A DNA stretch of 64,000 nucleotides from a virus. The position numbers and the translations under genes were made by a program. Under the pieces are notes generated by a model. That model saw nothing but the letters and a program-made list of their open reading frames with translations. It made no database searches and was not told where the DNA came from. The stretch lies in IMG/VR virus record IMGVR_UViG_3300028833_000004. One strand, given 5' to 3'. This document shows positions 1 to 20,053 of this stretch, in pieces (the first letter of the stretch is position 1; each line of letters starts with the position of its first letter).

Positions 1-25
1 GGTAATTGTGGAGTGCTAGCCCTAA

Positions 26-70
26 GGCCCATCTATGGAGCAGGACACAGTTCGATTCTGTGTATGGGCC
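26..70 (+). ncRNA. tRNA-like minihelix (acceptor-like helix plus canonical T-arm); not a complete tRNA
   Basis: GGCCCAT (26-32) is the exact complement of ATGGGCC (64-70). Between them CACAG(46-50)-TTCGATT(51-57)-CTGTG(58-62) is a textbook T-arm. The 13 nt left over cannot form D or anticodon arms. Confidence 0.3.
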
Positions 71-349
71 CTATGCCTATGAAACAAGATGGAGTCCCTG
101 CTGGATGCATGCGATTTAACGTCGCCTTGTATCAAGCAAGACTCGAATCCTTGGAGAGTTTCTTAGGCTCTAATCCGTATGCCGGGGAATACGAACTGGC
201 CTTATGCTGGGGAGTATCTCTGTCCGCGGCAATAGCCACCATGCATAAAATAATGGTTGGGATTAGAGCCGGGATACTTCAATCAAAATTCCCAATAAAT
301 GGGAAGAAGATTGGAGTAAAAGGAAACTATTATGTCGTATATAAGGCAT

Positions 350-1150
350 AACTCCTGCAGAGGGATGCGTATTCTGCATTACTCATAACGCATAACGATA
401 GATCTTAGCTATTACAAAACACCTCCTTGTAATAGCCGGACAAGTATAGGAGGTATAAATTCGACAGACTATGAATATGTATGTCGACATGGCTGTAGAG
501 CCTCACGGCCCTACGTCTGAGAATGACATCGGGATTGCCATTCTACAGGCGTTAGAATCAAGATTGGAGAGTCCTAATGCTTTCTAGGCATCTCCAATCA
601 AGTACTGTCTGTACGCAAATTCTGATGAGGACATAGCCTATTTGAGATCTTGGATTTGTAGTAATCTTAGATCTACAAATGGCAAATCTGTCCTATCAGA
701 ATTTGACTACGGTCAGTAGTAGGGCTCCTGAGTAAGACTCCGAGTGTAATGAGCTCGGGAACAGAAATCATCCCTGTATTGATATTGGTTTATCATACAG
801 GCCTAAAGTTGGCCGTACATGGACACCACTATGTGTAGGGCCTAAATTAAAGAGCATCATCTCTCTAAACTGTCTAGCGGCTTGACCACATCCTTTCGGT
901 ACTGGCGGTGAAAATCCAAACCGGGCTAGCAAGCAGCTCATCTTGTAAAACCGAGCCACCTAAGCATTCATATATGTGAGCTTTCGGCAGCAGCATGTAT
1001 GAAAGACGGGCATCCTCAATATGATGTAAAACTATTGACATCAGATAAGATGTAAAAATCCCCACTACCGGGGTGACATGGTACTCGGATTGTTAATTGT
1101 CTGGCCGAGCGGACTAGAGCAGTTCTTGACCCACGGGCTGTCGACGATCC
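350..1150. ncRNA. candidate large structured noncoding RNA or structured noncoding DNA (unclassified)
   Basis: No convincing ORF; only short, mutually overlapping ORFs in different frames. Many long helices: 408-417/427-436 (10 bp perfect), 562-570/591-599 (9 bp), 617-633/689-704 (16 bp with one bulge) enclosing 654-661/673-680 (8 bp), and 773-779/795-801 (7 bp). The strand is not determined. Confidence 0.3.
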
Positions 1151-1180
1151 ACATTTTATGTGGATATTTTGGGTATTCAT

Positions 1181-1849
1181 ATGGCAACAAAGAATATTAT
1201 TGCCGAAGTAATTAATGCGAGCAAAGATGCTCGCCAATTTAGTGAGGAAGAGCTTCAAAAGAAGCTTGCCTCTCTAAATGGGCGAGATGGCTCGCCCCTC
1301 AAAGCCGAAGAGGAGCTTTGGCTCCTCCCGGTGCTCCTTCCAAGCTGGAAGTGGAAGGGCATTGAGGGTGAATACCCTGCACTTCCAGCCATCAACCAGA
1401 ACGGACACCTGGTCGTAATAGGTCTTGGAAGCCTCGCTGGAGGTTCTGGGTACCTAGAGGATCCAGGCGAAGGAACCTGGGAAATTTCGGAGACCGGATG
1501 GTGGTATCTAAAACCGTCTGAGGTCCCCGAAGGTGGTAGCAGGGCCACCAAAGTCTGGGGGTTGTCGAGGAGTCTTAAAGACTCATTCAACGACAACCTC
1601 GAGCTCAGAGGGGTCGTATCCCTCAAAGTAGAGGAGGACGGCTATTGTTACGGGCCGAGGCTCGTAAAGGCCGGGAGTCCCGACGAGGGACGAGAGAGGG
1701 CAAGCCTGCGCTTTAAGCGCAACACCCATTTCTGGGAAGGCAAGGCCCAGCCAATAACCGCCATTCCGAGCAAACTTAAAAAGTTTGCAGAGAAGCTGGG
1801 TTTACCGATGGAATGGCTAAAACCATTCCCAGCTGACTTCTACTGCTGA
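1181..1849 (+). CDS. hypothetical protein (G+C-rich ORFan, N-terminus MATKN)
   Basis: Long ORF with 33/60 G+C at 1381-1440. I place the start at ATG 1181 because its first codons ATGGCAACnAAnAAT (MATKN) recur at the next ORF. A perfect 14-bp terminator follows. No motif recognised. Confidence 0.55.
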   Translation: MATKNIIAEVINASKDARQFSEEELQKKLASLNGRDGSPLKAEEELWLLPVLLPSWKWKGIEGEYPALPAINQNGHLVVIGLGSLAGGSGYLEDPGEGTWEISETGWWYLKPSEVPEGGSRATKVWGLSRSLKDSFNDNLELRGVVSLKVEEDGYCYGPRLVKAGSPDEGRERASLRFKRNTHFWEGKAQPITAIPSKLKKFAEKLGLPMEWLKPFPADFYC

Positions 1850-1850
1850 A

Positions 1851-1892
1851 ATAAAGGATCCTAGAGAAATCTAGGATCCTTTATTTTTTTTG
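1851..1892. terminator. intrinsic (bidirectional-type) terminator
   Basis: ATAAAGGATCCTAG (1851-1864) pairs perfectly with CTAGGATCCTTTAT (1871-1884). The loop is AGAAAT, with a T-run at 1885-1891 and an A-rich 5' flank. Confidence 0.85.
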
Positions 1893-1970
1893 GCGACTCA
1901 TCATGGCCCCAGGTACTTTATAGCGCATAAAGCGTATTATTATTTTTTTTTAATTTAATATTTTTATTGT

Positions 1971-2639
1971 ATGGCAACGAAAAATTCGTATCTGGGTGAA
2001 AAATTCAACCCAGCAGATGAGAGCGATCGTGCTCTCAAAGACATGAAGGCACTCGAATCAGTTAATTTTGAGCGCCAAGCTCCATTAACTGAAGGTGCAA
2101 CTTATATCCTCCTACCGCAGGAAAATACAGCGGCTGTATATACTATCCCAGGAGTTGGTGATAGAGTTTCTCGCCGATTCTGGGCAGTTGAGCTTAACCG
2201 AAAGAATGAGCCTGTATCTATACGTAGTATAGGCTATTCATCGATAGCCAAAATGGGATATCAAGAAAAGACTTCAGCTCAACCTGCTGCACCAGAGGTT
2301 CCTGCATATCAGGATAAAGAAGGAAAATGGCACCCGAAACGTGGGTTAAGTTATGTGTTCTCATGCGAGGACCACAACTTCATTAAGGCAAACCCAGAGA
2401 CAATGCTTATGGAGATAAAGACTCCTACGGCATTGAAAGTGATGCGTAGAGCCGAAGTGTGGGTTGCATCCTTTAAGGATCAAGCATTAGTAGTAAAGGA
2501 CGGGATGATTGTTCCTGAAGTAGATGACCGATTCGTGTTCTTCAAAACCCTCGTAGCCCCAACTGAAGATATAGTTGAGGCTTGCAAAAAGGTCCTTGAA
2601 AATGAAGACTCAATTCAAGACTGCCTTTACCTGTTGTAA
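1971..2639 (+). CDS. hypothetical protein (second ORFan starting MATKN)
   Basis: 222-aa ORF preceded by an AT-rich leader. It shares the MATKN start with 1181..1849. No motif recognised. Confidence 0.6.
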   Translation: MATKNSYLGEKFNPADESDRALKDMKALESVNFERQAPLTEGATYILLPQENTAAVYTIPGVGDRVSRRFWAVELNRKNEPVSIRSIGYSSIAKMGYQEKTSAQPAAPEVPAYQDKEGKWHPKRGLSYVFSCEDHNFIKANPETMLMEIKTPTALKVMRRAEVWVASFKDQALVVKDGMIVPEVDDRFVFFKTLVAPTEDIVEACKKVLENEDSIQDCLYLL

Positions 2640-2709
2640 GGGTAGTCTTGAAGGTAACACTTTTAAAACCGAAAATATTTCATATAAGTGTTATTTTATA
2701 AAGGGCCGA

Positions 2710-2770
2710 CCGAAACCAGCAGACGGTGAAATAGTTTATGCCATGTTTCGCCGTCTGTCTGATGATTCGG
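2710..2770 (+). other. long imperfect hairpin downstream of ORF 1971..2639
   Basis: CAGACGG(T)GAAA (2720-2731) pairs with TTTC(G)CCGTCTG (2746-2757). The outer pair is CCGAA (2710-2714) with TTCGG (2766-2770). There is no clean T-run, so its role as a terminator is uncertain. Confidence 0.4.
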
Positions 2771-2779
2771 TATTATTAT

Positions 2780-3330
2780 TAATGTATCTCCCTGAATGGT
2801 CAGGAGTATAAATATTGTTGACCAGGAATTTGTCAGTAGTATTGAAACTGTCAATATGTAGTTATATAACATCCGCAGTATTATACATTGAAATATGTAT
2901 AATTGTCTAACAAGTTATGTATAATAAGTTGAAGGTGAAATCTAAATCCTAATCCTGTATAGTTAGACTACAGGTAGCATGTGCAATACCTATAGGTCAT
3001 GCTGTGTGTATATACCCTAAGAGTATCTAGTTCCTATGCTTATAAATGGAAATGGTAGGGGTATTATACACACAAAAAATTGTATTTTGTTAATCAAAAG
3101 TAGTTCAGTATTAAAATGAAGCATAGCGGCTGGTAACCGATTAGAGAGTACCAGACATAGAGTGAAGTCTGTGTCGAAACACATTGCTATAGGAAGACCT
3201 CTATAGATAAAAGGACAATGTGTATGCAATTTCCTTACTGCATAAATCCGAGACTGTTGGTAACAGTTGAACTTCACAGACAGCTATATAGGTGGACTAA
3301 CCATCCGCATCTAGACTATATAGCTTTTTT
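2780..3330 (+). ncRNA. candidate ~0.55-kb structured RNA ending at an intrinsic terminator (unclassified)
   Basis: ORF-free on the + strand. Helices at 3004-3017/3059-3073 (14 bp, one bulge) and 3253-3258/3262-3267. It ends with the 3283-3330 terminator. The 5' end is a guess. Confidence 0.3.
3283..3330 (+). terminator. intrinsic terminator not attached to an ORF
   Basis: GCTATATAG (3283-3291) pairs perfectly with CTATATAGC (3316-3324), followed by TTTTTT (3325-3330). Confidence 0.7.
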
Positions 3331-3581
3331 ACTCATACCACTGTGATAGGTGGTATGGGTCCTATCTTGCTTTCTGATATACAATCAGTGGACAACTGCT
3401 TACTTTGAAGAATAAAGGTATGGCAAGAGCTGCACTCTTACTAGGTTCTTGAGTGATAACTTCAAAGCGCTGCGTTTATTAGAGCGTGGAAACAGAAATC
3501 TAATACTCTATTTCTTATTCAGAGTATAACTGAATATATCCCATCCGATGGTAGTGAAAACGATGTAAAACTAAACCTACC

Positions 3582-3607
3582 AATTTTTATTAACAATCTA
3601 AAAATTA
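3582..3607 (+). promoter_or_regulatory. 26-nt upstream motif copy 1 (AATTTTTATTAACAATCTAAAAATTA)
   Basis: Matches 3993-4018 at 25 of 26 positions. Ends 8 nt before ATG 3616. Confidence 0.4.
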
Positions 3608-3615
3608 TTAGTAAT

Positions 3616-3984
3616 ATGCAAACAATTATGTATCAAGATGAAAAAGGATATAGATATATCCCAGTTTTCCAACCAGAGTTATCAAACTTGTTTGAATATA
3701 CTCGAAAAAAAGTATATCACATCTATACAGATAATCCTAAATGGTGTGGAAAAATATTACCAGAAGTAGTAAATGACACATCTATAGACGTAGGTACAAG
3801 AACTTATTGGCTGGAGAGAACTAATAACTCCATAGAGTGGGGACTAAAACCTTATCACAAGATATCATTTAAAGACATTGAAGAATTAGATGAAGATATA
3901 TGTGAAATATATAATTTTGAGTCAATTGGAATTGATTCAAGTGGAGTTTATGAATATGAAATTATCTATCCCTATGATGATTAG
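3616..3984 (+). CDS. hypothetical protein
   Basis: AT-rich 122-aa ORF ending on TAG. It is preceded by the conserved 26-nt motif. Confidence 0.65.
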   Translation: MQTIMYQDEKGYRYIPVFQPELSNLFEYTRKKVYHIYTDNPKWCGKILPEVVNDTSIDVGTRTYWLERTNNSIEWGLKPYHKISFKDIEELDEDICEIYNFESIGIDSSGVYEYEIIYPYDD

Positions 3985-3992
3985 GGATAGAT

Positions 3993-4018
3993 AATTTTTA
4001 TTAACAATTTAAAAATTA
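3993..4018 (+). promoter_or_regulatory. 26-nt upstream motif copy 2 (AATTTTTATTAACAATTTAAAAATTA)
   Basis: Second copy of the motif. Ends 6 nt before ATG 4025. Confidence 0.4.
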
Positions 4019-4024
4019 AAAAAT

Positions 4025-4324
4025 ATGAAAAAAGTATATAACGTTGTTCATCACTATGATGTTGATGGCGGAATTGGATATGCCATCAGTCAAAAAGAAG
4101 TTCTATTTATAACTTCTGTCAAAAAAGTGGCAGAAGAATTTATAGATAAATATTCCCATGATCATGTCTATGATGTTCCATATTCAGAACTTCATATGGG
4201 ATTATTAAAAGTGGAAGAATTCAATGTAATAGAATCTTGGGAGGATATCCCCAAAAATATAATTGAATGGGGAGATGAAAACAAAAGTGAGACAGACAAC
4301 TATAATCCGGATGACTATCATTAA
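4025..4324 (+). CDS. hypothetical protein
   Basis: 99-aa AT-rich ORF preceded by the conserved upstream motif. Confidence 0.65.
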   Translation: MKKVYNVVHHYDVDGGIGYAISQKEVLFITSVKKVAEEFIDKYSHDHVYDVPYSELHMGLLKVEEFNVIESWEDIPKNIIEWGDENKSETDNYNPDDYH

Positions 4325-4382
4325 GATTATGAGTTTTCTATCTCAGACTGGTTAGATTGGTAATTATTAAAATATATAAATT

Positions 4383-4601
4383 ATGAAGAAGATATTGAAT
4401 TATATACTGTTGTACGGCACAATAGTGTACAGCTTGCTATTTTTAATGGCGGCAGAGTCATTAATCGAAAGCCTTCCCGCAATAGCCTGTATTATGATTT
4501 TAATACAGGCAACATTAATATTCTTATGTATAGGAATATTTGGAGATGGAAAGTGGCGTGAATATGTACCTAAATGGATAAGTAGGATGGATGAAGATTA
4601 A
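4383..4601 (+). CDS. small membrane protein (two hydrophobic segments)
   Basis: 72-aa ORF with the hydrophobic stretches ILLYGTIVYSLLFLMAA and AIACIMILIQATLIFLCIGIF. Confidence 0.6.
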   Translation: MKKILNYILLYGTIVYSLLFLMAAESLIESLPAIACIMILIQATLIFLCIGIFGDGKWREYVPKWISRMDED

Positions 4602-4804
4602 TTAAATCATGATATATCCTTATATAATGAAACCCTTTTTGACTAACCATTTATGGAGGAATAAATGGAAGCAGGTAAGAAGACATAATAGAAATTGACC
4701 AATTTTCATTATCCTGAGGATCTGGGTACACACAGTATCCTGAAAGTCTTCAATTTGTTCCTAAGAGAGTGATATCTGTTAGGGGCACTAACCCTGCAAA
4801 GGGA

Positions 4805-4878
4805 TTTGTCGTATTAATTTGTGTTTTTCCTGTCGAGAGAGTCTTAATCCTTATTTGGTTGGAAGATGGTTTAGAAGA
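4805..4878 (+). repeat. 74-nt repeat, module order A(4805-4840)-B(4841-4878)
   Basis: A is TTTGTCGTATTAATTTGTGTTTTTCCTGTCGAGAGA. B is GTCTTAATCCTTATTTGGTTGGAAGATGGTTTAGAAGA. Both modules recur at 6350-6423 in the opposite order. Confidence 0.9.
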
Positions 4879-5101
4879 CATGCGCGTGCGGTTATATAAG
4901 TAGTGTGTCTTCCGAGTAGTGTGTCTTGCGAACGACTCGGATGAACGACTACAAATTAACGTTTTTTTAGTAACTTGTTTGGGCATGTTAAGTCTTGGTG
5001 TTGATTTCATGTTCTCGAAGTGTCCGTTTGAGGTATATTCGGACGATTTTTATATTACTATTTCAAAAGTGGAGGCACCACGATAAAAACTGTTTATTGT
5101 T

Positions 5102-5383
5102 ATGTATTTATTGAACGCATTTAGTTTGCAGATGGTGGAAACACCTGTATCTGTGAAATTTTCTGAAATAGAAGTGAACGAATTGCCCAAAGAATTAACA
5201 TCAGCCATCGGGCATGCGGATACTGCTGCTGTTCTTGGTGTTGAATGCAATCGCATAAATGTTAAATTAGCAAAAGGCGATACCGCATACGTTGCCCAAC
5301 TGATGGGCGGACGACTCCCCGAAGGGAGCACAACTCTCCCCGAAGGATTCCACTTCAAGTTTATTAAGGTGGACGTTGAATAA
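5102..5383 (+). CDS. STIV B116-like / DUF1874 family small protein
   Basis: YLLNAFSLQM near the N-terminus, then SAIGHADTAAVLG...NRINVKLAKGDTAYVAQLMGGRLPEG. This parallels my recollection of B116 (FLTNAFSINM...NAIGHDST...NRVEVKMNEGDEALIIM..RLEEG). Confidence 0.7.
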   Translation: MYLLNAFSLQMVETPVSVKFSEIEVNELPKELTSAIGHADTAAVLGVECNRINVKLAKGDTAYVAQLMGGRLPEGSTTLPEGFHFKFIKVDVE

Positions 5384-5499
5384 ATCCCTTATTCAAAATA
5401 ATCAATACGTCAAAGAGCTAATAAATAGGATTTTTGACTAAAATGACAAATCATAAATCCTTAATTAAAAATTACTTATATTTATAAACCTACAATCAA

Positions 5500-5925
5500 A
5501 TGCCATTTAATGAGATGTGGGAAAGTTTAGTGAATATGTATAAGAGTACTGTAATGTTTCTCCGCTCAAATCGGAGAAATCGTCAAACAAAAATGACGAG
5601 GGGCGAATATTGTCCAGGAGAGCTTAAAAGTTCTCAGGCAATTCGCCAAATACTTTTTGATTTGAGAGGTAAGTTAATTCACTTTCCCAAGGATTCTTGG
5701 GTGTACTACATCTTAAGAGACCTTAAGATGGAAGAGTTCCGAAGAGGTGAAATAACCTACTGGAGATGTTGCCCGTACTTTGAGAGGGTGTACATTAACT
5801 TCAATGATGAAGCTAATTGGAACGAACTCCAAAGTACAGGTAAACTCTCCTGGGCTCGGGATGAGTATATATCATGGCTAAAAGCTGTGATGCCGCTCCG
5901 TTCTGAGATTATCCAGGTAGAGTGA
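5500..5925 (+). CDS. hypothetical protein
   Basis: 141-aa ORF with no recognisable motif. Composition is intermediate. Confidence 0.5.
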   Translation: MPFNEMWESLVNMYKSTVMFLRSNRRNRQTKMTRGEYCPGELKSSQAIRQILFDLRGKLIHFPKDSWVYYILRDLKMEEFRRGEITYWRCCPYFERVYINFNDEANWNELQSTGKLSWARDEYISWLKAVMPLRSEIIQVE

Positions 5926-6259
5926 TCTCCATCGGAGTTCCCACTACAGCAATGTGAATGGCAAGAGAGTGGGTGAAAGAGAGTTGCCCGCTGGTCACGT
6001 AAGACCACAGTCGAAGGTTACACGGAATCTTAAAGATGTAACCGAGTATTTAAAGTTGGGGACAAGTGATTGGTTTTGCTTGTACTTTCTAAATGGGTGT
6101 ACGCCATTCCGTCGGGAATAGTATTCTACTACCATTCCTTGTAAACGACCCGACGCTAAATAATAAACGTTCGACAACGGAAGGACTTGTGCTATCAGGC
6201 TGAACGGGCGGAAATATAGCAATCGCATGGGTTAGGTGCGTCCGTGCGGTTGCTTTTTT
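5926..6259 (+). ncRNA. candidate ~330-nt structured RNA or 3' UTR element capped by a terminator (unclassified)
   Basis: 32/60 G+C at 5941-6000. Helices at 6016-6022/6037-6043 (7 bp), 6110-6116/6149-6155 (7 bp), and 6048-6055/6085-6094 enclosing 6062-6066/6079-6083. The terminator lies at 6219-6259. Confidence 0.3.
6219..6259 (+). terminator. intrinsic terminator
   Basis: GCAATCGCA (6219-6227) pairs with TGCGGTTGC (6245-6253) over 9 bp, one of them a G-U pair. TTTTTT follows at 6254-6259. Confidence 0.65.
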
Positions 6260-6349
6260 GTTATGCACCAAAACGATTTGAACGGATGAAGAGTCTGAAA
6301 ATTTGGCTTGTCAATGTATCTAATTGGCAAGTTGTAGAACATTGCGGCG

Positions 6350-6423
6350 GTCTTAATCCTTATTTGGTTGGAAGATGGTTTAGAAGATTTGTCGTATTAA
6401 TTTGTGTTTTACCTGTCGAGAGA
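6350..6423 (+). repeat. 74-nt repeat, module order B(6350-6387)-A(6388-6423)
   Basis: B is identical to 4841-4878. A differs from 4805-4840 by one substitution (TTTTTCC versus TTTTACC). Confidence 0.9.
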
Positions 6424-6480
6424 CAGTAAGATCCTGTTGTGAAACAGTGTCTCTGGCATTTTAGATGTTAATAATATACG

Positions 6481-6508
6481 GGTATAGGAGTTTGAATACT
6501 CCCATACC
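6481..6508. repeat. conserved hairpin element, copy 1
   Basis: GGTATAGGAGT, loop ttgaat, ACTCCCATACC. This gives 10 of 11 bp. The flanks GGGTATAG... and ...ATACCTyCTAA are shared with copy 2. Confidence 0.8.
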
Positions 6509-6575
6509 TCCTAAAGTAATAAAGTTGTTAAAACTTTGCTGAGGCCGAATATACTCGCTTAGGCTTTGTTACTTG

Positions 6576-6603
6576 GGTATAGAGATTTGGTTATCTCTAT
6601 ACC
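6576..6603. repeat. conserved hairpin element, copy 2
   Basis: GGTATAGAGAT, loop ttggtt, ATCTCTATACC. This gives 11 of 11 bp. Three stem positions differ from copy 1 on both strands in a compensatory way. Confidence 0.8.
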
Positions 6604-6667
6604 TTCTAATTTAATTGAAGAATTTATTTGTTGTTTATTGGGTTGTTTTGTTGAAGTTTGTCATGAG

Positions 6668-6723
6668 GATTACTTAATTGGGGTTAAGTAATCAGAACTC
6701 TCCCCTGAAATATGGGGAGAGTT
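6668..6723. terminator. tandem perfect hairpins at the 3' end of the - strand gene (possible terminator)
   Basis: GATTACTTAA (6668-6677) pairs with TTAAGTAATC (6684-6693). AACTCTCCCC (6696-6705) pairs with GGGGAGAGTT (6714-6723). The second hairpin abuts the stop of 6724..7476. T-runs are weak. Confidence 0.5.
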
Positions 6724-7476
6724 TTATAAAACTATATCTTGAAAATTAACTTTATTTTCTTGTATATGTTTTACCAGTGCATTAATTGTTTTAGATTGAT
6801 GTTCTAACTTCTCTTGTAATTGTTTATATTTAAGAGATAAATCATCATGTTCTGATTGTAGAGATTCAATTTTAGAATCTGTTTCTAAGAATTTAAGAGC
6901 AATAGTATTGGCGAATTCATTAAAATTATATATTCGCTGGTAATTACATTCTAAATCAGTATGCCCATTATCTGGGATTTTTACCAATATATTTTTATCT
7001 TCTAAGGATTTCTCATATTTTTGTAAAGTTCTGGGATCTATATTGAGATAATTTGCTAATTGTTTATTACTATATGTAATAATTCCATTTTGTGCAACTG
7101 GATCTTTAAACATAAATTGTTGACTCATTACAATCATCGACTTATCTCTAGAGGATAAATTAGAATCATTTAGAAAATCAAAAGAAAATATTTCAAATTT
7201 ATTATAATCATTAAAGGTATATATAGAAGATGTGCCAGGTCTCTTAGTTATATTAATATATCCTGCATTTTCTAACCTTTTAAGTCCATTTAAAATAGTT
7301 TTTCTATCTAATTCGGAATCTTTTACAATAGTGGAAATTTGTGGATATGCCTGTTTTGTTTCTAAATTCATATATTTTTTAATACAGGCATAGATATAGG
7401 GATCATTTAGTGTTAATCCTTGCTTTTTTAAATCCATATTTGGGATTTGTACGTGCTGTTTTGATAATTCATTCAT
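6724..7476 (-). CDS. double winged-helix DNA-binding protein (putative replication initiator or early regulator)
   Basis: Two wHTH-like segments: YPQISTIVKDSELDRKTILNGLKRLENAGYINITKR and ITYSNKQLANYLNIDPRTLQKYEKSLEDKNILVKI. The C-terminus is coiled-coil. It is the only - strand gene of the early arm and is divergent from the iteron cluster. Confidence 0.5.
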   Translation of the reverse strand: MNELSKQHVQIPNMDLKKQGLTLNDPYIYACIKKYMNLETKQAYPQISTIVKDSELDRKTILNGLKRLENAGYINITKRPGTSSIYTFNDYNKFEIFSFDFLNDSNLSSRDKSMIVMSQQFMFKDPVAQNGIITYSNKQLANYLNIDPRTLQKYEKSLEDKNILVKIPDNGHTDLECNYQRIYNFNEFANTIALKFLETDSKIESLQSEHDDLSLKYKQLQEKLEHQSKTINALVKHIQENKVNFQDIVL

Positions 7477-7640
7477 AATAACTTTTATTTTTTACAAAAT
7501 TACTAAAATATAAATATATAAAAAAGATAATGTTATTATTTTTAAAATAATCTAAAGAAGTTATTATTATTGCATAAATGTAATTAGGTAGTGTAATTTT
7601 TGTAATTATATTGGGAATTAAATAAACTTATTGGTATTGG

Positions 7641-7724
7641 TATACAAATTCGATACTACCCTATGCAAATTCGATACTACCCCCCTATGCAAAATTGGTA
7701 CTACCCTATGCAAAATTGGTACTC
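7641..7724 (+). repeat. four tandem ~21-nt iterons
   Basis: The four units are TATACAAATTCGATACTACC, CTATGCAAATTCGATACTACCC, CCTATGCAAAATTGGTACTACC and CTATGCAAAATTGGTACTCT. They sit in a very AT-rich divergent intergenic region. Confidence 0.85.
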
Positions 7725-7846
7725 TAACTATACTTATATATACTTATATAACTATACTTAACCGGCTAAGCCGGAACCTAGCCTCGAAATGTACAATAAT
7801 TGTACAAAAGAGGGCTACCATATGGTAAAAATAGAGCTGGGTCAAT

Positions 7847-7919
7847 GCCGCAATAGCTCAATGGATAGAGCAACTGACTTCTAATCAGTAGGTTGTAAGT
7901 TCGATTCTTACTTGCGGTA
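7847..7919 (+). tRNA. tRNA-Arg (anticodon TCT)
   Basis: The cloverleaf can be drawn by hand. Acceptor: GCCGCAA/TTGCGGT (G1-U72). D-arm: GCTC-AATGGATA-GAGC. Anticodon arm: ACTGA-CTTCTAA-TCAGT. T-arm: GTAAG-TTCGATT-CTTAC. Discriminator: A. Confidence 0.85.
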
Positions 7920-7990
7920 CTAGGGAGAGAGGAGTATCTCCACCCTCAAACACTCCCAACTGCTTACTAATCAGTTAAATATATTTTTTT

Positions 7991-8067
7991 ATGAGGTGAA
8001 CATTAGTATAACGTGTGTGCTTTTTTTGTTTTCATGTTTTTAGCTATCTATACTAATGTCACCTCAT
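7991..8067. terminator. long inverted repeat flanked by T-runs (bidirectional terminator candidate)
   Basis: ATGAGGTGAACATTAGTATA (7991-8010) pairs with TATACTAATGTCACCTCAT (8049-8067) over 19 bp with one bulge. T-runs lie on both sides. Confidence 0.6.
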
Positions 8068-9199: not shown

Positions 9200-10174
9200 A
9201 TGAAAATATTAACAGAAAGAGATGTGAATAAGCATGGCTGGGGTATAGTATCGGTAATTACATCCGACATGCTAGAGAAATATGGGTATACACAAATTGG
9301 AGATTATGCTTTTTGGGGCGATGATCTTGAATCAATCATAATACCTAATAGTATAACAAAAATTGGAATTGGCGCGTTCAGAAATTGTCCTAAACTGACT
9401 TCAGTAACAATCCCCAATAGTGTAACAATTATTGACTCTAGGGCTTTTTTAAATTGTAGTAATTTAACCTCAATCAAGATTCCAAATAGTGTAACAGGTA
9501 TTGGTATACATGCTTTTAATGGTTGTTCTAATTTAACTTCAATAGTAGTAGAAGCAGATAATCCAAATTATGATAGTAGAAACAATTGCAATGCTATAAT
9601 AGAGACTGCTACAAACACTCTTATCGCTGGTTGTAAAAATACAATTATTCCCAATAGTGTAACAAATATTGGAAGTTTTGCCTTCTATAGCTGTGATGAT
9701 TTGACATCTATAATAATTCCCGATAATGTAATTAGCATTGGAGATGATGCTTTCTGCAAAACAGGTTTGAAATCCATATCTATTCCAAATAGTGTTACAA
9801 GCATTGGATATTGTGCTTTTAAGGATTGTAAAATTAACATACCTAAAAAATATGATAGTCTGGGTAGACTAATTGCATATAAAGGATTTGATTCTAAGAT
9901 GCAATGTTATGATCATTTTCAATACATTGAAGGACATACTTATAAAACTTCTGAAGCTATATTATGTGAATGCGGATTCCACGCTTGTACTAATCCCTTA
10001 GATATATTTTCTTATTATTTCGGAAGAATAAATAAAAATGTATATATACATGAGGTATATCTTGATGATGTAAGTACTGAAAAGGGTACGGATAGTAAGG
10101 TTGTATCTAAGAAAATAACTATTGGTCGAAGATTAACCATTGAAGACATAAACAATATAATACAAGAAAAATAA
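9200..10174 (+). CDS. BspA-type leucine-rich-repeat protein with conserved Cys/His C-terminal domain (array copy 1)
   Basis: Repeats of about 23 aa with the pattern LTSIxIPNSVTxIGxxAFxxCxx. The C-terminal part reads [34 protein letters not shown]. Confidence 0.8.
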   Translation: MKILTERDVNKHGWGIVSVITSDMLEKYGYTQIGDYAFWGDDLESIIIPNSITKIGIGAFRNCPKLTSVTIPNSVTIIDSRAFLNCSNLTSIKIPNSVTGIGIHAFNGCSNLTSIVVEADNPNYDSRNNCNAIIETATNTLIAGCKNTIIPNSVTNIGSFAFYSCDDLTSIIIPDNVISIGDDAFCKTGLKSISIPNSVTSIGYCAFKDCKINIPKKYDSLGRLIAYKGFDSKMQCYDHFQYIEGHTYKTSEAILCECGFHACTNPLDIFSYYFGRINKNVYIHEVYLDDVSTEKGTDSKVVSKKITIGRRLTIEDINNIIQEK

Positions 10175-10221
10175 AAAAACATTTGTATAATTCAAAAACA
10201 AAGTAAAAAAAATAAACAAAC

Positions 10222-11070
10222 ATGAAAACATTAACACAAAATAGTGTAATTGAACACGGATGGGATAAATTATCAGTTATAACGGCTGATATGATAGAAA
10301 AATATAGGTATACACAAATTGGGAAAAATGCTTTTAATCATTGCCATAGCCTTACCTCAATTACTATACCTAATAGTGTAACAACCATTGGACTTTATGC
10401 TTTCTATGATTGCACTAATCTTACCTTAATAACCATTCCAAATAGTGTAACAAAAATTGGGGATTATGCTTTCTATAATTGCCGTAGTCTTACCTCAATA
10501 ACAATACCAAATAGTGTAATAGCCATTGGGTGTTGGACTTTTTATAGATGTAATAATCTTACCTCAATTACTATTCCAAATAGTGTAACATACATTGGAA
10601 ATGGTGCTTTCTATCATTGCAGTAATCTTACCTCTATAATCATACCTAATAGTGTAACAACCATTGAAGATGATGCTTTTGCTGATTGTGGAATAAACCT
10701 GCCTAAAAAATACGATAATCAAGGTAGGTTAATTGCATATAAGGGATTTGATAAACACATGCAATGTCGTGGTTTTCAATACATTGAGGGTGAAACCTAC
10801 GAAACAGATAAAGCTAAGTTATGTGTATGTGGTTTTCATGCTTGTACAAATCCTCTTGACATATTTAACTATTATGCTGGTGAAATAAATAATAAAATGT
10901 TTATTCACGAAGTGTATCTTGAAGATGTAAGTGGTGAGGAAAAAAATGATAGTAAAGTAGTTAGTAAGAAAATAACCATAGGTCGAAGATTAACAATTGA
11001 AGATATTAATAATATATTACAAGATGAAAGAGTTAACACGAGACAATGTAACCAAACATGGATGGAATGA
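10222..11070 (+). CDS. BspA-type LRR protein (array copy 2)
   Basis: Same architecture as copy 1. Its 3' end reads through the start codon of copy 3, giving a 47-nt overlap. Confidence 0.8.
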
Positions 11071-11845
11071 ACTATCGGTTATTACAGCCGATATGATAAA
11101 GGAATATGGCTATACTTCTATTGGAGAATACGCTTTCTATAATTGTAAAAATCTAGTTTCAATAACCTTACCAAATAGTATAACGAATATTAGAAGAAGT
11201 GCTTTTTTTAATTGTTATAAATTAGCCTTTATAACAATTCCTAATAGTGTAATCAGTATTGGAAATTATGCTTTCACATTTTGTCACAGCTTGACTTCGG
11301 TTATTATTCCTAATAGCGTAATAAATATTGGAAATAATGCATTCACTGGTTGTAATAGTCTAACCTCAGTCACAATTGGTAATGGTACAACAGGCATTGG
11401 AGATTGTACTTTTGCTTTTTGCAATAATCTTATTTCTATTATCATTCCTAATAGTATAAAAATTATTGGATTTCGTGCTTTTGGAGGTTGTAAAATAAAG
11501 TTGCCTAAAAAATATGATGCCCAAGGTAGATTAATTGCTTACAAAGGATTTAATAAAAACATGCAGTGTCGTAATTTTCAATATGCGGAAGGACAAACTT
11601 ATGAGACATACAAGGCGGAATTGTGTAAATGTGGCTTCCATGCCTGTACTAATCCTCTTGATGTATTTACTTATTATGCAGGTGAAATAGGTAAAGATAT
11701 GTTTATCCATGAAGTATATCTTGAAGAAGTGAATGATGAAGAAGATAGTGATAGCAAGATAGTTGCTAATAAAATAACTATTGGTAAACGTTTAACAATC
11801 AAAGATATTAATAAAATTATACAAAATGAAAATATTAACAGATGA
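11024..11845 (+). CDS. BspA-type LRR protein (array copy 3)
   Basis: I place the start at ATG 11024 ([14 protein letters not shown]), which aligns with the N-termini of the other copies. Same architecture. Confidence 0.8.
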
Positions 11846-14733: not shown

Positions 14734-14898
14734 TGAAGTATAAAAAGCAAATACAAAACAAAGAATCAAGAATAAAAAATTGGGAAGTCAATCTTGCCAA
14801 AGATTCAGGTTATAGAAAACCAGGTAGTAATAAGAAATAATTCTATTTTTTACAAAAGCTAATATGCATATCCATAATTTTTATGGTATGTTAAAACG

Positions 14899-14930
14899 CC
14901 CTTAGGATATTGATTTATCCTAAGGGTTCT
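14899..14930 (+). terminator. hairpin terminator (homologous to 20000-20027)
   Basis: CCCTTAGGATA (14899-14909) pairs perfectly with TATCCTAAGGG (14916-14926). The loop is TTGATT. Confidence 0.6.
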
Positions 14931-14965
14931 AATTAAATATAAATTTTTATAAAAATTTTTAAATT

Positions 14966-18055: not shown

Positions 18056-18358
18056 ATGACAGATTACACAGGAAAGAAAGTAATTGTCCGCTCGCACGGA
18101 GCGGGAGTGTTCTTCGGAACGTTGAAAGAATTTGATGCCGCCAACGGTATCGTAGAGTTAACAAACTGCCGCCGTGTGTGGTACTGGAGCGGTGCAACCT
18201 CGCTGTCCCAACTCGCTTGCGAGGGCGTTAAGAATGCCGGAGGCAGCAAGATAACGCAAGAGGTTGCGTCTATATGCGTTACACAAGTTTTGGAAATTAT
18301 TCCATGCACGGAAGAGGCTATTGAAAATCTAAATCGTGTGCCGGTATGGAAGATGTAA
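18056..18358 (+). CDS. hypothetical protein (G+C-rich cassette)
   Basis: 100-aa ORF (GKKVIVRSHGAGVFFGTL...RRVWYWSGATSLSQLACEGV). No function assignable. Confidence 0.65.
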   Translation: MTDYTGKKVIVRSHGAGVFFGTLKEFDAANGIVELTNCRRVWYWSGATSLSQLACEGVKNAGGSKITQEVASICVTQVLEIIPCTEEAIENLNRVPVWKM

Positions 18359-19065
18359 TTAAACGCTTTTTAGCAGTAGAATATGGCTATGGTTATGGTT
18401 ATGGCTTTGGCTATGGCTATGGCTATGGCGATGGCGATGGCTCTGGCGATGGCTCTGGCTCTGGCTATAGCGATGGCGATGGCGATGGCTCTGGCGATGG
18501 CTCTGGCTTTGGCTATAGCGATGGCTATGGCTATGGTTATGGCTCTGGCTTTGGCTATGGCTCTGGCGATGGCGATGGCTCTGGCGATGGCGATGGCTCT
18601 GGCATAAAATCTTTTTGTGGGCAAAAAGTCTATATCATAGATAGCGTGCAAACTCTTATCGATAGTATACATGGCAATTATGCAAGAGGTGCGATACTCA
18701 AATCTGATTTGACTACCGAGTCTTGCTACATAGCTAAGGTAGGCAATTTCTTTGCTCACGGCACTACGCTCAAGCAGGCGTTTGCAGACGCACAAGAAAA
18801 GTACGACAGGAACAGATCTATAAAAGAACGCATTGCAGATTTCGTGCAGCAATACCCGACACTTGACACAAAGTGCAAGGGCGCAGACCTCTTCCGGTGG
18901 CACAATGTCCTAACGGGCTCGTGCCAATTAGGCAGAGAGCAGTTTTGCAACGAGCGTGGCATTAACCCCGATACCGTTACGATGACTGTAAGAGAGTTTA
19001 TAGAACTGACAAAAAACGCCTACGGCAGTAAGGCAATCCTACTACTGCGTGAAGCGTATAACTAA
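18346..19065 (+). CDS. protein with N-terminal (GY/GD/GS)n low-complexity region and globular C-terminal domain
   Basis: 239-aa ORF. Residues from about 13 to 86 are Gly-X dipeptides. The C-terminal 150 aa are of normal composition. Confidence 0.7.
   Translation: MEDVIKRFLAVEYGYGYGYGFGYGYGYGDGDGSGDGSGSGYSDGDGDGSGDGSGFGYSDGYGYGYGSGFGYGSGDGDGSGDGDGSGIKSFCGQKVYIIDSVQTLIDSIHGNYARGAILKSDLTTESCYIAKVGNFFAHGTTLKQAFADAQEKYDRNRSIKERIADFVQQYPTLDTKCKGADLFRWHNVLTGSCQLGREQFCNERGINPDTVTMTVREFIELTKNAYGSKAILLLREAYN
18382..18603 (+). repeat. hexanucleotide (GGC-NNN type) tandem repeat tract inside a CDS
   Basis: Units such as tatggc, gatggc, tctggc and tttggc repeat for about 220 nt. All six frames are open here, which produces artefactual ORFs. 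Confidence 0.9.
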
Positions 19066-19226: not shown

Positions 19227-19511
19227 ATGATAACATTAGGAATTATTTTATTAGTAGTAGCATTTTTATGCGCGAGTACCTATTTTGTATCAATTTTTAT
19301 TGATTGTTATAATGAATCGGTTTTGAAAATTATTATGATATTGGGGGGCGTAACAGCTTTGTTAGGTGCAATTATAATAATAGTTTCTATAGCCTAAAAA
19401 CCGACCGATAAAGATGTATTGGATGGCAAAGCCGAGTATCGAGAAACACAAATAATAACAGGTACTGATACTGTTAAAACTTATCATATTATATGGAAAC
19501 AAGAGAATTAA
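19227..19511 (+). pseudogene. small membrane protein paralog interrupted by an in-frame TAA
   Basis: MITLGIILLVVAFL...IIIIVSIA, then TAA (19395-97), then KPTDKDVLDGKAEYRETQIITGTDTVKTYHIIWKQEN. It aligns end to end with 13967..14239. Confidence 0.55.
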
Positions 19512-19984
19512 AGATTGATGTGCCGGAAGGGTATGAGATAGACAAAGAAAAGTCTACTTTTGAACACATTGTGCTTAGAAAAATTTCTAATTCATTACCA
19601 AGGAGTTGGGATGAATATTGTAGGCAACAAAAAGATATGGGTCTTACTGGGTATTATCTTAATAATACTAAAATAAATGAATGTTCATGGAGAGATATGA
19701 GCATTCCTTCTAACTGGAGTAGTGTTTTACCTTCCAGAGAATTAGCAGAAGCAGTTTGTGCTTTGATGCAATTAATGTCCCTTAGACAAGCATGGATTGG
19801 TGACTGGGAACCTAATTGGGATGGATATACGTGCCATCATTGTATTGTTACTATTGAAAACAAATATTGTGTCCAACAATATTATGACTCTTATCGAGCT
19901 TTATCTTTTCCAACATCAGAAAAGGCAGAAGATTTTATGAATACCTTTAAAGATTTATTGGAAATTGCCAAGTCTTTAATATGA
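19493..19984 (+). CDS. hypothetical protein, METxELKI family
   Basis: Paralog of 14221..14733. Confidence 0.65.
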   Translation: METRELKIDVPEGYEIDKEKSTFEHIVLRKISNSLPRSWDEYCRQQKDMGLTGYYLNNTKINECSWRDMSIPSNWSSVLPSRELAEAVCALMQLMSLRQAWIGDWEPNWDGYTCHHCIVTIENKYCVQQYYDSYRALSFPTSEKAEDFMNTFKDLLEIAKSLI

Positions 19985-19999
19985 TGAAGTCTTAATTTA

Positions 20000-20027
20000 T
20001 CTTTAGGATATTGATTTATTCTAAAGA
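20000..20027 (+). terminator. hairpin terminator (homolog of 14899-14930)
   Basis: TCTTTAGGATA pairs with TATTCTAAAGA (one G-U pair). The loop TTGATT is identical to that of the other copy. Confidence 0.55.
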
Positions 20028-20053
20028 TACTAATTTTAAAATTTATTTTATTT

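Follow-up and report, generated by a model that had tools for sequence, protein, structure and literature searches.

A GC-rich, hairpin-dense island with a repeated, pre-tRNA-like hairpin motif at the head of the early arm of a divergent crAss-like phage

The stretch of DNA analysed here, 64,000 nt of IMG/VR virus record IMGVR_UViG_3300028833_000004 (hereafter the window), opens with an island (positions 1–6723) that is richer in G+C (GC) than the remainder and forms the head of the early, plus-strand arm. A first-pass annotation, made from the letters and their open reading frames (ORFs) only, had taken this island for one of the long gene-free regions reported in crAss-like phages, and had proposed that it encodes several structured RNAs or carries replication or packaging signals. 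Our analysis supports the view of a crAss-like region that is poor in recognisable genes and rich in structured RNA, and does not support the absence of genes, the presence of a known RNA family or that of an origin. What is new here is a hairpin motif that is conserved, strand-specific and pre-tRNA-like in its geometry and flank, and two conserved RNA elements that precede it.

Position, composition and relatives of the island

The body of the window encodes a helicase, a ligase, NrdD and a family A DNA polymerase (PolA) that is 45–51% identical to those of IAS virus, cr111_1 and PhiCrAssBcn; on the basis of this similarity and gene content, the phage is classified as a divergent crAss-like phage. 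Exact-protein look-ups recovered the same phage in a JGI contig (117 kb), an ENA contig (158 kb) and several Logan contigs. The JGI and ENA assemblies (L001 and L002) are identical to the window along 12,639 bases, reach 8 kb upstream of window position 1 and span both borders of the island, and one Logan contig (L003) agrees over 4,870 bases and spans the upstream border only. A chimeric join at about 6.7 kb, which had been considered as a possible source of the island, was thus not seen in either of the two independent assemblies that cross both borders.

GC content is 0.397 in 1–6723 and 0.292 in 6724–64,000, and every other 6.7-kb stretch of the window has a value of at most 0.339. The six spot counts given previously (25, 33, 29 and 32 of 60 nt inside the island, 19 and 14 of 60 nt in the body) were exact. 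The right border near 6.7 kb also held, and a 10-bp hairpin found by the hairpin scan (6696–6723) lies there, at the 3' end of the convergent replication initiator (rep) gene. The left border, on the other hand, is an artefact of the window: in the two longer assemblies, the GC-rich and hairpin-rich stretch runs on for ~1 kb at a GC of about 0.45 (0.454), to about position −1050 (negative positions lie upstream of window position 1), and the 6723 positions are the window's share of a ~7.8-kb region delimited by GC, folding energy and hairpin density. At about −1050 a nearly pure A+T stretch parts the island from the minus-strand late arm, and the cumulative GC skew has its minimum at this arm junction.

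The DNA upstream of the window belongs to this late arm, in which long ORFs appear only with TAG read-through (L002:1–6980). Recoding of TAG fills the late arm and not the island; moreover, recoding of TAG, TGA or TAA adds no homology-supported long ORF in 1–6723, where such alternative-code genes had been thought possible. The window and the 8 kb upstream of it have tRNAs for Arg, Trp, Cys and Asn only, with no suppressor tRNA found there. A tRNA(CUA) is carried in the late arm of the relatives L011–L013. Under the standard code, plus-strand ORFs of at least 60 aa cover 0.52 of the island compared with 0.90 of the body, and eight plausible ORFs account for 48% of the island. The lower ORF density noted in the first-pass annotation therefore stands, but coverage amounts to about half rather than 'a minority'.

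The Rep initiator (6724–7476) served as an anchor for locating related phages. Its homologues sit on contigs of 150–172 kb, and the closest relative, L007, has a Rep that is 54% identical to that of the window. GC-richer islands occupy the same arm junction in L007, L008 and L009 even though protein identity is only 35–54%, and hence the composition and hairpin density of the island are maintained and not recently imported. The island is a real, conserved feature lying between a TAG-recoded late arm and the replication initiator gene. Neither blastn against phages nor a search for exact motifs in viral contigs and GTDB genomes detected similar DNA. Scans anchored on proteins were likewise empty for viral contigs and genomes, and a metagenome scan returned three short loci only.

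One crAss-like family has been reported to span 145–192 kb, and regions without recognisable proteins, unmatched even between close relatives, have been described in the Zeta group (Yutin et al., 2021; PMC7886860). We take the 145–192-kb family to be the Zeta group, an assignment based on size range and PolA similarity and not on a phylogeny. The island resembles these gene-poor regions in that the phage is crAss-like and its relatives (150–172 kb) fall in the size range, short ORFs lacking recognisable products occur in both polarities, and there is no match in a close relative, since a phage with a 90% identical Rep has unrelated sequence adjoining its rep gene; the likeness is qualified by the homologues that exist for three island ORFs. 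In our phage TAG recoding is confined to the late arm. In addition, whereas the paper gives no anatomy of the regions, about half of the present one is plausibly coding and the rest consists of conserved sense-strand RNA structure and a repeated motif.

Hairpin density, a repeated motif and conserved RNA elements

Secondary structure is much denser in the island than in the body. In 150-nt folding windows of the plus strand, the mean z-score of the minimum free energy (MFE) was −2.24 in the island and −0.72 in the body; z-scores below −3 were found in 28% of island folding windows versus 5% in the body, and below −4 in 16% versus 1%. Perfect hairpins (stem of at least 7) occur at 7.8 per kb in the island compared with 3.4 ± 0.5 in dinucleotide shuffles, and at 5.8 per kb in the body compared with 5.0. 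The L007 island shows the same excess (9.2 per kb versus 3.4 in shuffles). Besides the non-coding parts, the excess is present in −391 to 351, ORF1 (1181–1849), 5102–5925 and the AT-rich cassette (3582–4601), the genes of which are described below. Among the single structures is a long imperfect hairpin with 24-nt arms at 603–718 (plus strand), with a z-score of −6.5 on the plus and −9.5 on the minus strand. In L007, a 940-nt run of ~30 consecutive near-perfect hairpins (L007:12660–13600, minus strand) has an MFE z of −18; this run contains several UUCG and GNRA loops and overlaps a called 210-aa ORF with an in-frame stop.

A covariance model of an element at 3131–3364 (see below) revealed that the last hairpin of this element recurs many times in relatives, always on the early-sense strand. 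The resulting motif has a 12-bp stem, a 6-nt loop (KUGRWN), one unpaired nucleotide and then CUA(A). In a strict scan, in which the stem sequence was relaxed and the loop K-U-G-R-W-N and a nearby CTA were required, eight copies were found on the plus strand of the window and none on the minus strand, with 0.3 in shuffles, and the relatives gave 12 on the early-sense strand and none on the other. The 12-position stem seen in every copy and the exactly one nucleotide before CUA were not required by the scan. Stems of the eight window and 12 relative copies have 11–12 pairs, one of them being formed by 11 pairs and a 1-nt bulge, and the base after CUA is A in 15 of the 19 aligned copies. A covariance model built from the motif copies produced zero antisense matches at E values up to 1 in the window, and none in the late arm.

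All eight window copies lie on the plus strand. The first (772–805) is the bulged one, with 11 bp, the loop UUGGUU and then C CUAAAG, and the second (3331–3365) is the founding member of the 'ACUCAUACCAC...GUGGUAUGGGU' family. They are followed by copies at 4757–4791, 6058–6092, 6480–6514 and 6575–6609, the last two of which correspond to the first and second hairpins that had been placed at 6481–6603. The remaining two copies, at 14898–14932 in the early arm and at 19999–20033, 15 nt past the stop codon of ORF 19493–19984, are also intergenic; six of the eight are therefore in the island. Fourteen copies form a narrow family that can be aligned without gaps, with pairing in 95% of cells and double changes at 8 of the 12 pairs. 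This degree of pairing and covariation was reached by 0 of 500 shuffles, and slid controls gave 35–47%. A U.G pair is kept in 12 of the 14 copies, and because it would be a C.A mismatch on the opposite strand, the sense strand is the functional one. The model of the narrow family gave ~24 sense matches of 31–54 bits in eight phages, with far lower antisense scores. Membership of the 6480 and 6575 hairpins in the narrow 'ACUCAUA' family was rejected, as model R2 gives them no score and only the broader motif fits.

Non-coding blocks shared by the window and L007 match or exceed the best part of the rep gene (76%) in conservation, and two of them stand immediately before a motif copy. The larger (3131–3330, plus strand) is a conserved non-coding multi-hairpin element with a terminator-like hairpin and T6 at its end (3283–3330), and together with motif copy 2 it measures ~235 nt (3131–3364). 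Its positions 3131–3319 align with a non-coding gap of L007 at 75% identity over 193 nt, and 3328–3364 are 84% identical. RNAalifold on 3120–3372 identified six pairs with compensatory changes, one of which lies in a long-range helix closing onto the hairpin copy at 3331–3365. Independent folds of the window and L007 copies of 3131–3364 put hairpins at equivalent positions, and also reveal a local hairpin of shorter length, whose GUGAAG loop is constant and whose stem adds three compensated positions. The smaller element is a 43-nt block (728–770, plus strand) that is 95% identical in L007, with a hairpin kept through a G-C to G.U change, and that lies directly upstream of a minihelix in both phages. 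A third block conserved in L007 is at 1880–1982, and a further conserved block is found at the far left edge, at about −1010 to −880. The proposal of several structured RNAs thus gains support from conservation with compensatory changes and from the strand-specific statistics of the motif.

With regard to terminators, those previously placed at 3283–3330 and 6219–6259 do have T6, the latter folding as 15 pairs at 6218–6259 (plus strand). The hairpins at 6481–6603 cannot be counted among them: the tails of 6480–6514 and 6575–6609 (CCTAAAGT and TCTAATTT) have no U-tract, and both hairpins are copies of the conserved motif. The hairpin scan found another intrinsic terminator, with an 18-bp stem, a GAAA loop and a T-run, at 1848–1887 (plus strand). 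The Rfam families suggested for the island (GOLLD, ROOL, HEARO, group I intron and tmRNA) and all others in Rfam 15 gave no island match at E values up to 10. The closest approach was BjrC68, with 30.4 bits against 39, on the terminator at 1817–1889. Over 1–8000 the sole passing match was tRNA-Arg at 7847–7919, and the upstream 1 kb yielded nothing; the same method recovers a group I intron in L014 and a tmRNA in phage phi14:2. By ARAGORN and Rfam, no tmRNA or permuted tmRNA was found in the window, and no tRNA, and thus no cloverleaf, in 1–6723. The Bacteroidetes −7 promoter motif TAnnTTTG was not enriched (86 found versus 102 expected), sigma-70-like sites were at chance level, and GATGTAAAA, which was tried as an early promoter motif, gave a non-significant count (5 found versus 1.9 expected).

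Genes, candidate origin and repeat modules

About half of the island looks coding, and it includes a DUF1874/AcrIII-1-like gene and a member of a ~220-aa family, contrary to the notion of a gene-free region. These are probably small, fast-evolving genes. In a codon model trained on the body, the annotated frame was the best of three for each GC-rich island ORF and an open antisense frame was not; codon scores were near zero, and GC at third codon positions (GC3) was 0.44–0.57 compared with 0.18 in body genes.

One of them encodes a DUF1874/STIV B116-like protein of 93 aa (5102–5383, plus strand), identified by Pfam (PF08960, 34.9 bits with a cut-off of 26), by phrog_5063 (8e-16) and by PDB matches to AFV3-109, 2x4i, 6scf and STIV B116 (E 1e-4 to 1e-2). 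In the two alignments printed, those with AFV3-109 and 2x4i, its 'SAIGH' (GH motif) aligns with both structures. PDB 6scf is SIRV1 gp29, of the family of the viral ring nuclease AcrIII-1. Compared with the AcrIII-1/DUF1874 ring nucleases, the protein passes the Pfam threshold and shares the GH motif, but sequence similarity is low; we regard it as a putative AcrIII-1-like anti-CRISPR ring nuclease. The presence of this gene is the reason why we refer to the island as an accessory, or counter-defence, region.

Two tandem ORFs upstream are equal in length (222 aa) and both start with MATKN. ORF2 (1971–2639, plus strand) belongs to a rare ~220-aa family, as indicated by its homologues, its synteny with L007 and its AlphaFold2 (AF2) model. 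An exhaustive HMMER search of 1.84e9 representatives returned 22 clusters with lengths of 211–227 aa, except for two outliers of 287 and 590 aa, and identity to the syntenic L007 ORF is 35% (E 6e-33). On this sequence evidence, ORF2 is a real protein. The AF2 model is beta-rich (pLDDT 89.6); its best named Foldseek matches are single-stranded DNA-binding (SSB) or oligonucleotide-binding (OB)-fold proteins (E 5e-3 to 0.1), with TM-scores of 0.15–0.33, and no match had a convincing TM-score, so that an SSB-like or OB-fold character of the modelled protein is a hint only.

ORF1 (1181–1849, plus strand; GC 0.53) is very hairpin-rich, with 12 perfect hairpins per kb. A search of 5.8e9 proteins found no match but itself, and BLASTP to syntenic ORFs gave E values of 2.7e-5 in L007 and 0.003 in L012; the annotated frame is the best by codon model, with a GC3 of 0.57. 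A tandem ORF pair (~210–236 aa) is present at this position in L007, L008 and L011–L014, and because such pairs recur there, ORF1, weakly supported by its own sequence, is probably coding and the tandem partner of ORF2. In L014 the two members are clear paralogues of one another. The idea that ORF1 is a paralogue of ORF2 in the window was dropped, as profile comparison with the ORF2 family was unsupportive (hhalign E 0.053).

Other ORFs of the island are orphans. The 95-aa ORF at 64–351 (plus strand), which is also called in L001, has no Pfam or PHROG match; its annotated frame is best, with a codon score near 0 and a GC3 of 0.44, and its coding status is uncertain. The AT-rich three-gene cassette reported at 3582–4601 (plus strand) was borne out, with a GC of 0.27–0.33 and ORFs at 3616–3984, 4025–4324 and 4383–4601; a 24–26-nt upstream sequence is duplicated before two of these genes. 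ORF141 (141 aa; 5500–5925, plus strand) is hairpin-rich, with z-scores down to −7. No homologues were found by Pfam, PHROG or comparison with relatives for 64–351, the three cassette genes, 5500–5925 or an ORF at −391 to 19.

A different kind of repeat brackets the DUF1874 gene, ORF141 and the 6218–6259 terminator. Two 38-nt modules occur in the order A then B at 4803–4878 and in the swapped order B then A, in direct orientation, at 6350–6423 (both on the plus strand); between the two sites, module B is 100% and module A 97% identical. We found no counterpart in the relatives and no convincing fold for these repeats. The swap suggests cassette insertion or exchange, and a possible origin is insertion into a short tandem array (A-B-A-B-A).

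The replication signals that had been proposed for the island are better placed outside it. No iterons occur within 1–6723. The gene of the replication initiator, assigned by HTH_36/DnaD_N-like domain matches (6724–7476, minus strand), has directly upstream of it a stretch of 15–20% GC at 7477–7750 with four 21-nt iterons (TATGCAAATTCGATACTACCC) at 7641–7723, and from its sequence this is likely to be the replication origin. Beyond this candidate origin lies tRNA-Arg(TCT) (7847–7920). At the start of the AT-rich early arm, three adjacent paralogous genes with LRR_5 and DUF7666 domains (9200–11845) are found, and they occur in relatives too. A second GC-rich spot of the window (0.48) at 18336–18647 is made up of 12/18-nt tandem repeats inside the 239-aa ORF 18346–19065, which has no PHROG match; it looks like a low-complexity repeat protein and not a second island.

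Interpretation and significance

Any explanation of the island has to accommodate the observed composition, hairpin excess, conservation, covariation, strand specificity and shared 3' flank. Several observations connect the motif with tRNAs. Its copies offer a continuous 12-bp helix followed by a single-stranded tail, as expected of an acceptor/T-arm mimic, and the single nucleotide after the stem occupies the discriminator position. In the CCA-less tRNA genes of these phages, C follows the discriminator in 12 of 12 cases and CUA in 7 of 12, as in the hairpin flank, and the motif therefore has the 3' context of genuine tRNAs. The T-arm scan also identified a T-loop minihelix at 26–70 (plus strand), composed of GGCCCAT, a 12–13-nt linker, a T-arm (CACAG TTCGATT CTGTG) and ATGGGCC; the D arm and anticodon arm are absent, and it is not called by ARAGORN or Rfam. 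After the 43-nt block, within a few bases, the window has the hexaloop hairpin and L007 has a true TTCGATT T-loop minihelix, whereas after the 3131–3330 block the hairpin is found in the window and L007 alike. The equivalent gaps of other relatives hold tRNAs (Ile and Leu in L008), degenerate tRNA-like elements, a group I intron and a predicted two-piece tmRNA, and the phage with the 90% identical Rep has a tRNA 3' end where the window has its hairpins.

In the early arm of the 172-kb relative L014, the group I intron (L014:2574–3310, minus strand; Rfam 102 bits) adjoins an ARAGORN call of a permuted two-piece tmRNA with the tag GKNRPFARVAA. At L008:11801–11977 (minus strand), an Rfam tRNA match extends over 177 nt and contains an ARAGORN 74-nt tRNA-Ile(UAU); the span could represent a single tRNA with an inserted segment or a pair of tRNA-like elements that overlap.

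A conserved RNA followed by a tRNA-like element is the layout of MALAT1–mascRNA and of mitochondrial tRNA punctuation. RNase P measures the length of the T-arm/acceptor stack, and any RNA presenting such a stack can be cleaved (PMC4919913). The explanation we put forward, and in which belief and doubt are evenly balanced for us, is that the island is an early accessory region of small genes and sense-strand structured RNA, the transcripts of which are punctuated by tRNA-minihelix mimics. The hairpins would imitate the coaxial acceptor/T-arm stack of a pre-tRNA (7 + 5 = 12 bp) with its discriminator and trailer, and because of this imitation, the tRNA-maturation enzymes of the host would cut the long early transcripts at them, RNase P acting on the 5' edge and RNase Z on the 3' side of the unpaired nucleotide. 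Such cutting would release and cap the upstream non-coding RNAs and mRNAs, as in tRNA punctuation or in MALAT1–mascRNA. Selection for stable RNA helices might in that case have left the raised G+C as its compositional footprint in this 29%-GC genome.

Several points weigh against punctuation by tRNA mimics. The loop of the motif is a hexaloop and not a 7-nt T-loop (UUCRANY), the TTCGATT T-loop being present only in the element at 26–70 and its L007 counterpart, and a hexaloop may fail to offer RNase P its elbow contact. The hairpin excess extends into putative coding parts (ORF1 and 5500–5925), which could mean that these are not genes or that selection acts at the DNA level. A comparable gap in phi14:2 is neither GC-rich nor hairpin-rich. 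It should also be noted that the covariation in 3131–3364 rests on two sequences, L007 being the sole reasonably close carrier, and that the copies in the broad alignment were chosen as hairpins, so that their pairing statistics are partly circular; independent support for the motif comes from its count relative to shuffles, its strand asymmetry and the covariation of the narrow family. Transcription, cleavage and the roles of released RNAs are what we infer for this phage.

A different explanation, unlikely in our opinion but worthy of attention, is that the 12-bp hairpins are transcription signals, acting either as U-tract-less terminators or attenuators recognised by a phage RNA polymerase or as binding sites for early proteins such as the ORF1/ORF2 pair, and that the other structure mainly stabilises mRNA. 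Indeed, every copy lies in intergenic or non-coding sequence and points along the direction of transcription, and three copies are grouped with two intrinsic terminators where the plus-strand unit ends, before the convergent rep gene. The conserved loop and 3' flank of the motif would suit recognition by a protein, and the fold search of ORF2 offers weak hints of a nucleic-acid-binding OB-fold. However, this would leave unaccounted for the constant 12 bp plus one nucleotide plus CUA, the same flank at the phages' own tRNA genes, and the replacement of the hairpin by a T-loop minihelix after a conserved block in L007. We consider it improbable that the signal acts in DNA, with hairpins extruded from single-stranded or supercoiled DNA serving as N4-like promoters of a virion RNA polymerase, as origin or packaging sites, or as an injection stop. 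N4 promoters have 5–7-bp stems and 3-nt loops, compared with stems of 12 bp and loops of 6 nt here; furthermore, in the template strand the conserved U.G pair and further G.U pairs would turn into C.A mismatches, the copies at 6058, 6480 and 6575 have no downstream plus-strand gene before the convergent rep gene, UUCG and GNRA loops seen by eye in the hairpin arrays are of the RNA-stabilising type, and the iterons and AT-rich candidate origin lie outside the island. Such DNA hairpins would nevertheless fit the position of the island at the arm junction where the cumulative GC skew turns, the strong z-scores on both strands, and the properties of the crAss-like virion RNA polymerase gp66, which in phi14:2 strongly prefers single-stranded templates and makes early transcripts that share no upstream motif (Drobysheva et al., bioRxiv 10.1101/2020.03.07.982082).

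Recent acquisition would explain the island as a mosaic of GC-richer donor DNA in which the structure has no function, a possibility to which we give a little less credence again. The high GC3 of the island ORFs (0.44–0.57 versus 0.18 in the body), the replacement of content even between close relatives, the swapped 38-nt repeats around one module and the inserted AT-rich cassette are all of the kind that exchange would produce. On the other hand, relatives with 35–54% protein identity retain a GC-rich island at this position, along with syntenic genes and non-coding blocks. Donor composition does not account for the excess of hairpins over dinucleotide shuffles, for the covariation or for a motif confined to one strand, and searches of phage, viral-contig and GTDB collections recovered no similar DNA. 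Finally, an artefact, either a chimeric assembly or a coding region read in the wrong genetic code, was rejected and carries almost no weight with us: the adjacent late arm genuinely needs TAG read-through, but recoding leaves the island unfilled, and independent assemblies agree without mismatch, two of them over both borders and a third over the upstream border.

A precedent comes from phi14:2, in which two long early intergenic regions yield the most abundant early RNAs, being transcribed more than most genes, very strongly, in the sense direction and from the earliest time point onwards (Drobysheva et al., bioRxiv 10.1101/2020.03.07.982082). In a 1.7-kb gene-free early gap of this phage (L020, NC_021806), ARAGORN predicts a tmRNA at 4031–4500 with the tag GSSVQKLAMVA, which Rfam scores at 46 bits against a gathering score of 47 (E 7e-16). 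This gap corresponds to the regions reported as highly transcribed 'long non-coding RNA'. The island is like it in position and kind, both being early, tRNA-related, non-coding, long and gene-free, and differs in that no sequence similarity was found and that the tmRNA of phi14:2 has no detectable equivalent in the window.

Repeated, intergenic hairpins of one orientation in an early polycistronic unit are also reminiscent of the RNase III sites of T7. These sites have at least ~20 bp with internal loops and lie between early genes, whereas the present motif has a fixed 12-bp stem, a conserved loop and a CUA flank. With tRNA punctuation, MALAT1–mascRNA and RNase P substrates such as tmRNA and 4.5S RNA, the motif shares the 12-bp stack, the single-stranded 3' tail and a location after conserved RNA and between genes, and its flank is identical to that of the real tRNA genes of the same phages; it differs in having a hexaloop and no cloverleaf, and its cleavage is something we infer. 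To our knowledge, tRNA-like punctuation of phage early transcripts has not been described previously.

More tentatively, and with considerably less confidence than in the explanation preferred above, we suggest that large crAss-like phages may have a dedicated class of minihelix mimics (12-bp hairpin, one nucleotide, CUAA) that would hijack host RNase P and RNase Z to punctuate their first transcripts, freeing stable, GC-rich early non-coding RNAs from a counter-defence region, and that the hairpin-dense, GC-rich make-up of this region, coding parts included, may have been selected because it makes early RNAs resistant to single-strand-specific RNases of the host or its defences. If true, this would be the counterpart, in a virus of bacteria, of mitochondrial tRNA punctuation or of MALAT1–mascRNA processing.

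The crAss-like phages are among the most abundant gut viruses, and their 'empty' regions, noted by Yutin et al. (2021) and highly transcribed in phi14:2, have been unexplained. Here, one such region has been resolved into testable parts: an RNA element of ~235 nt, a strand-specific hairpin motif, a likely anti-CRISPR gene and a conserved gene pair. Were the hairpins to act as processing signals, the division of long early transcripts into units would be accounted for, and early non-coding RNAs in other uncultured phages could be found by a simple sequence signature. It would also follow that a GC-rich island in an AT-rich phage genome need not be foreign DNA and can instead be a sign of structured RNA.

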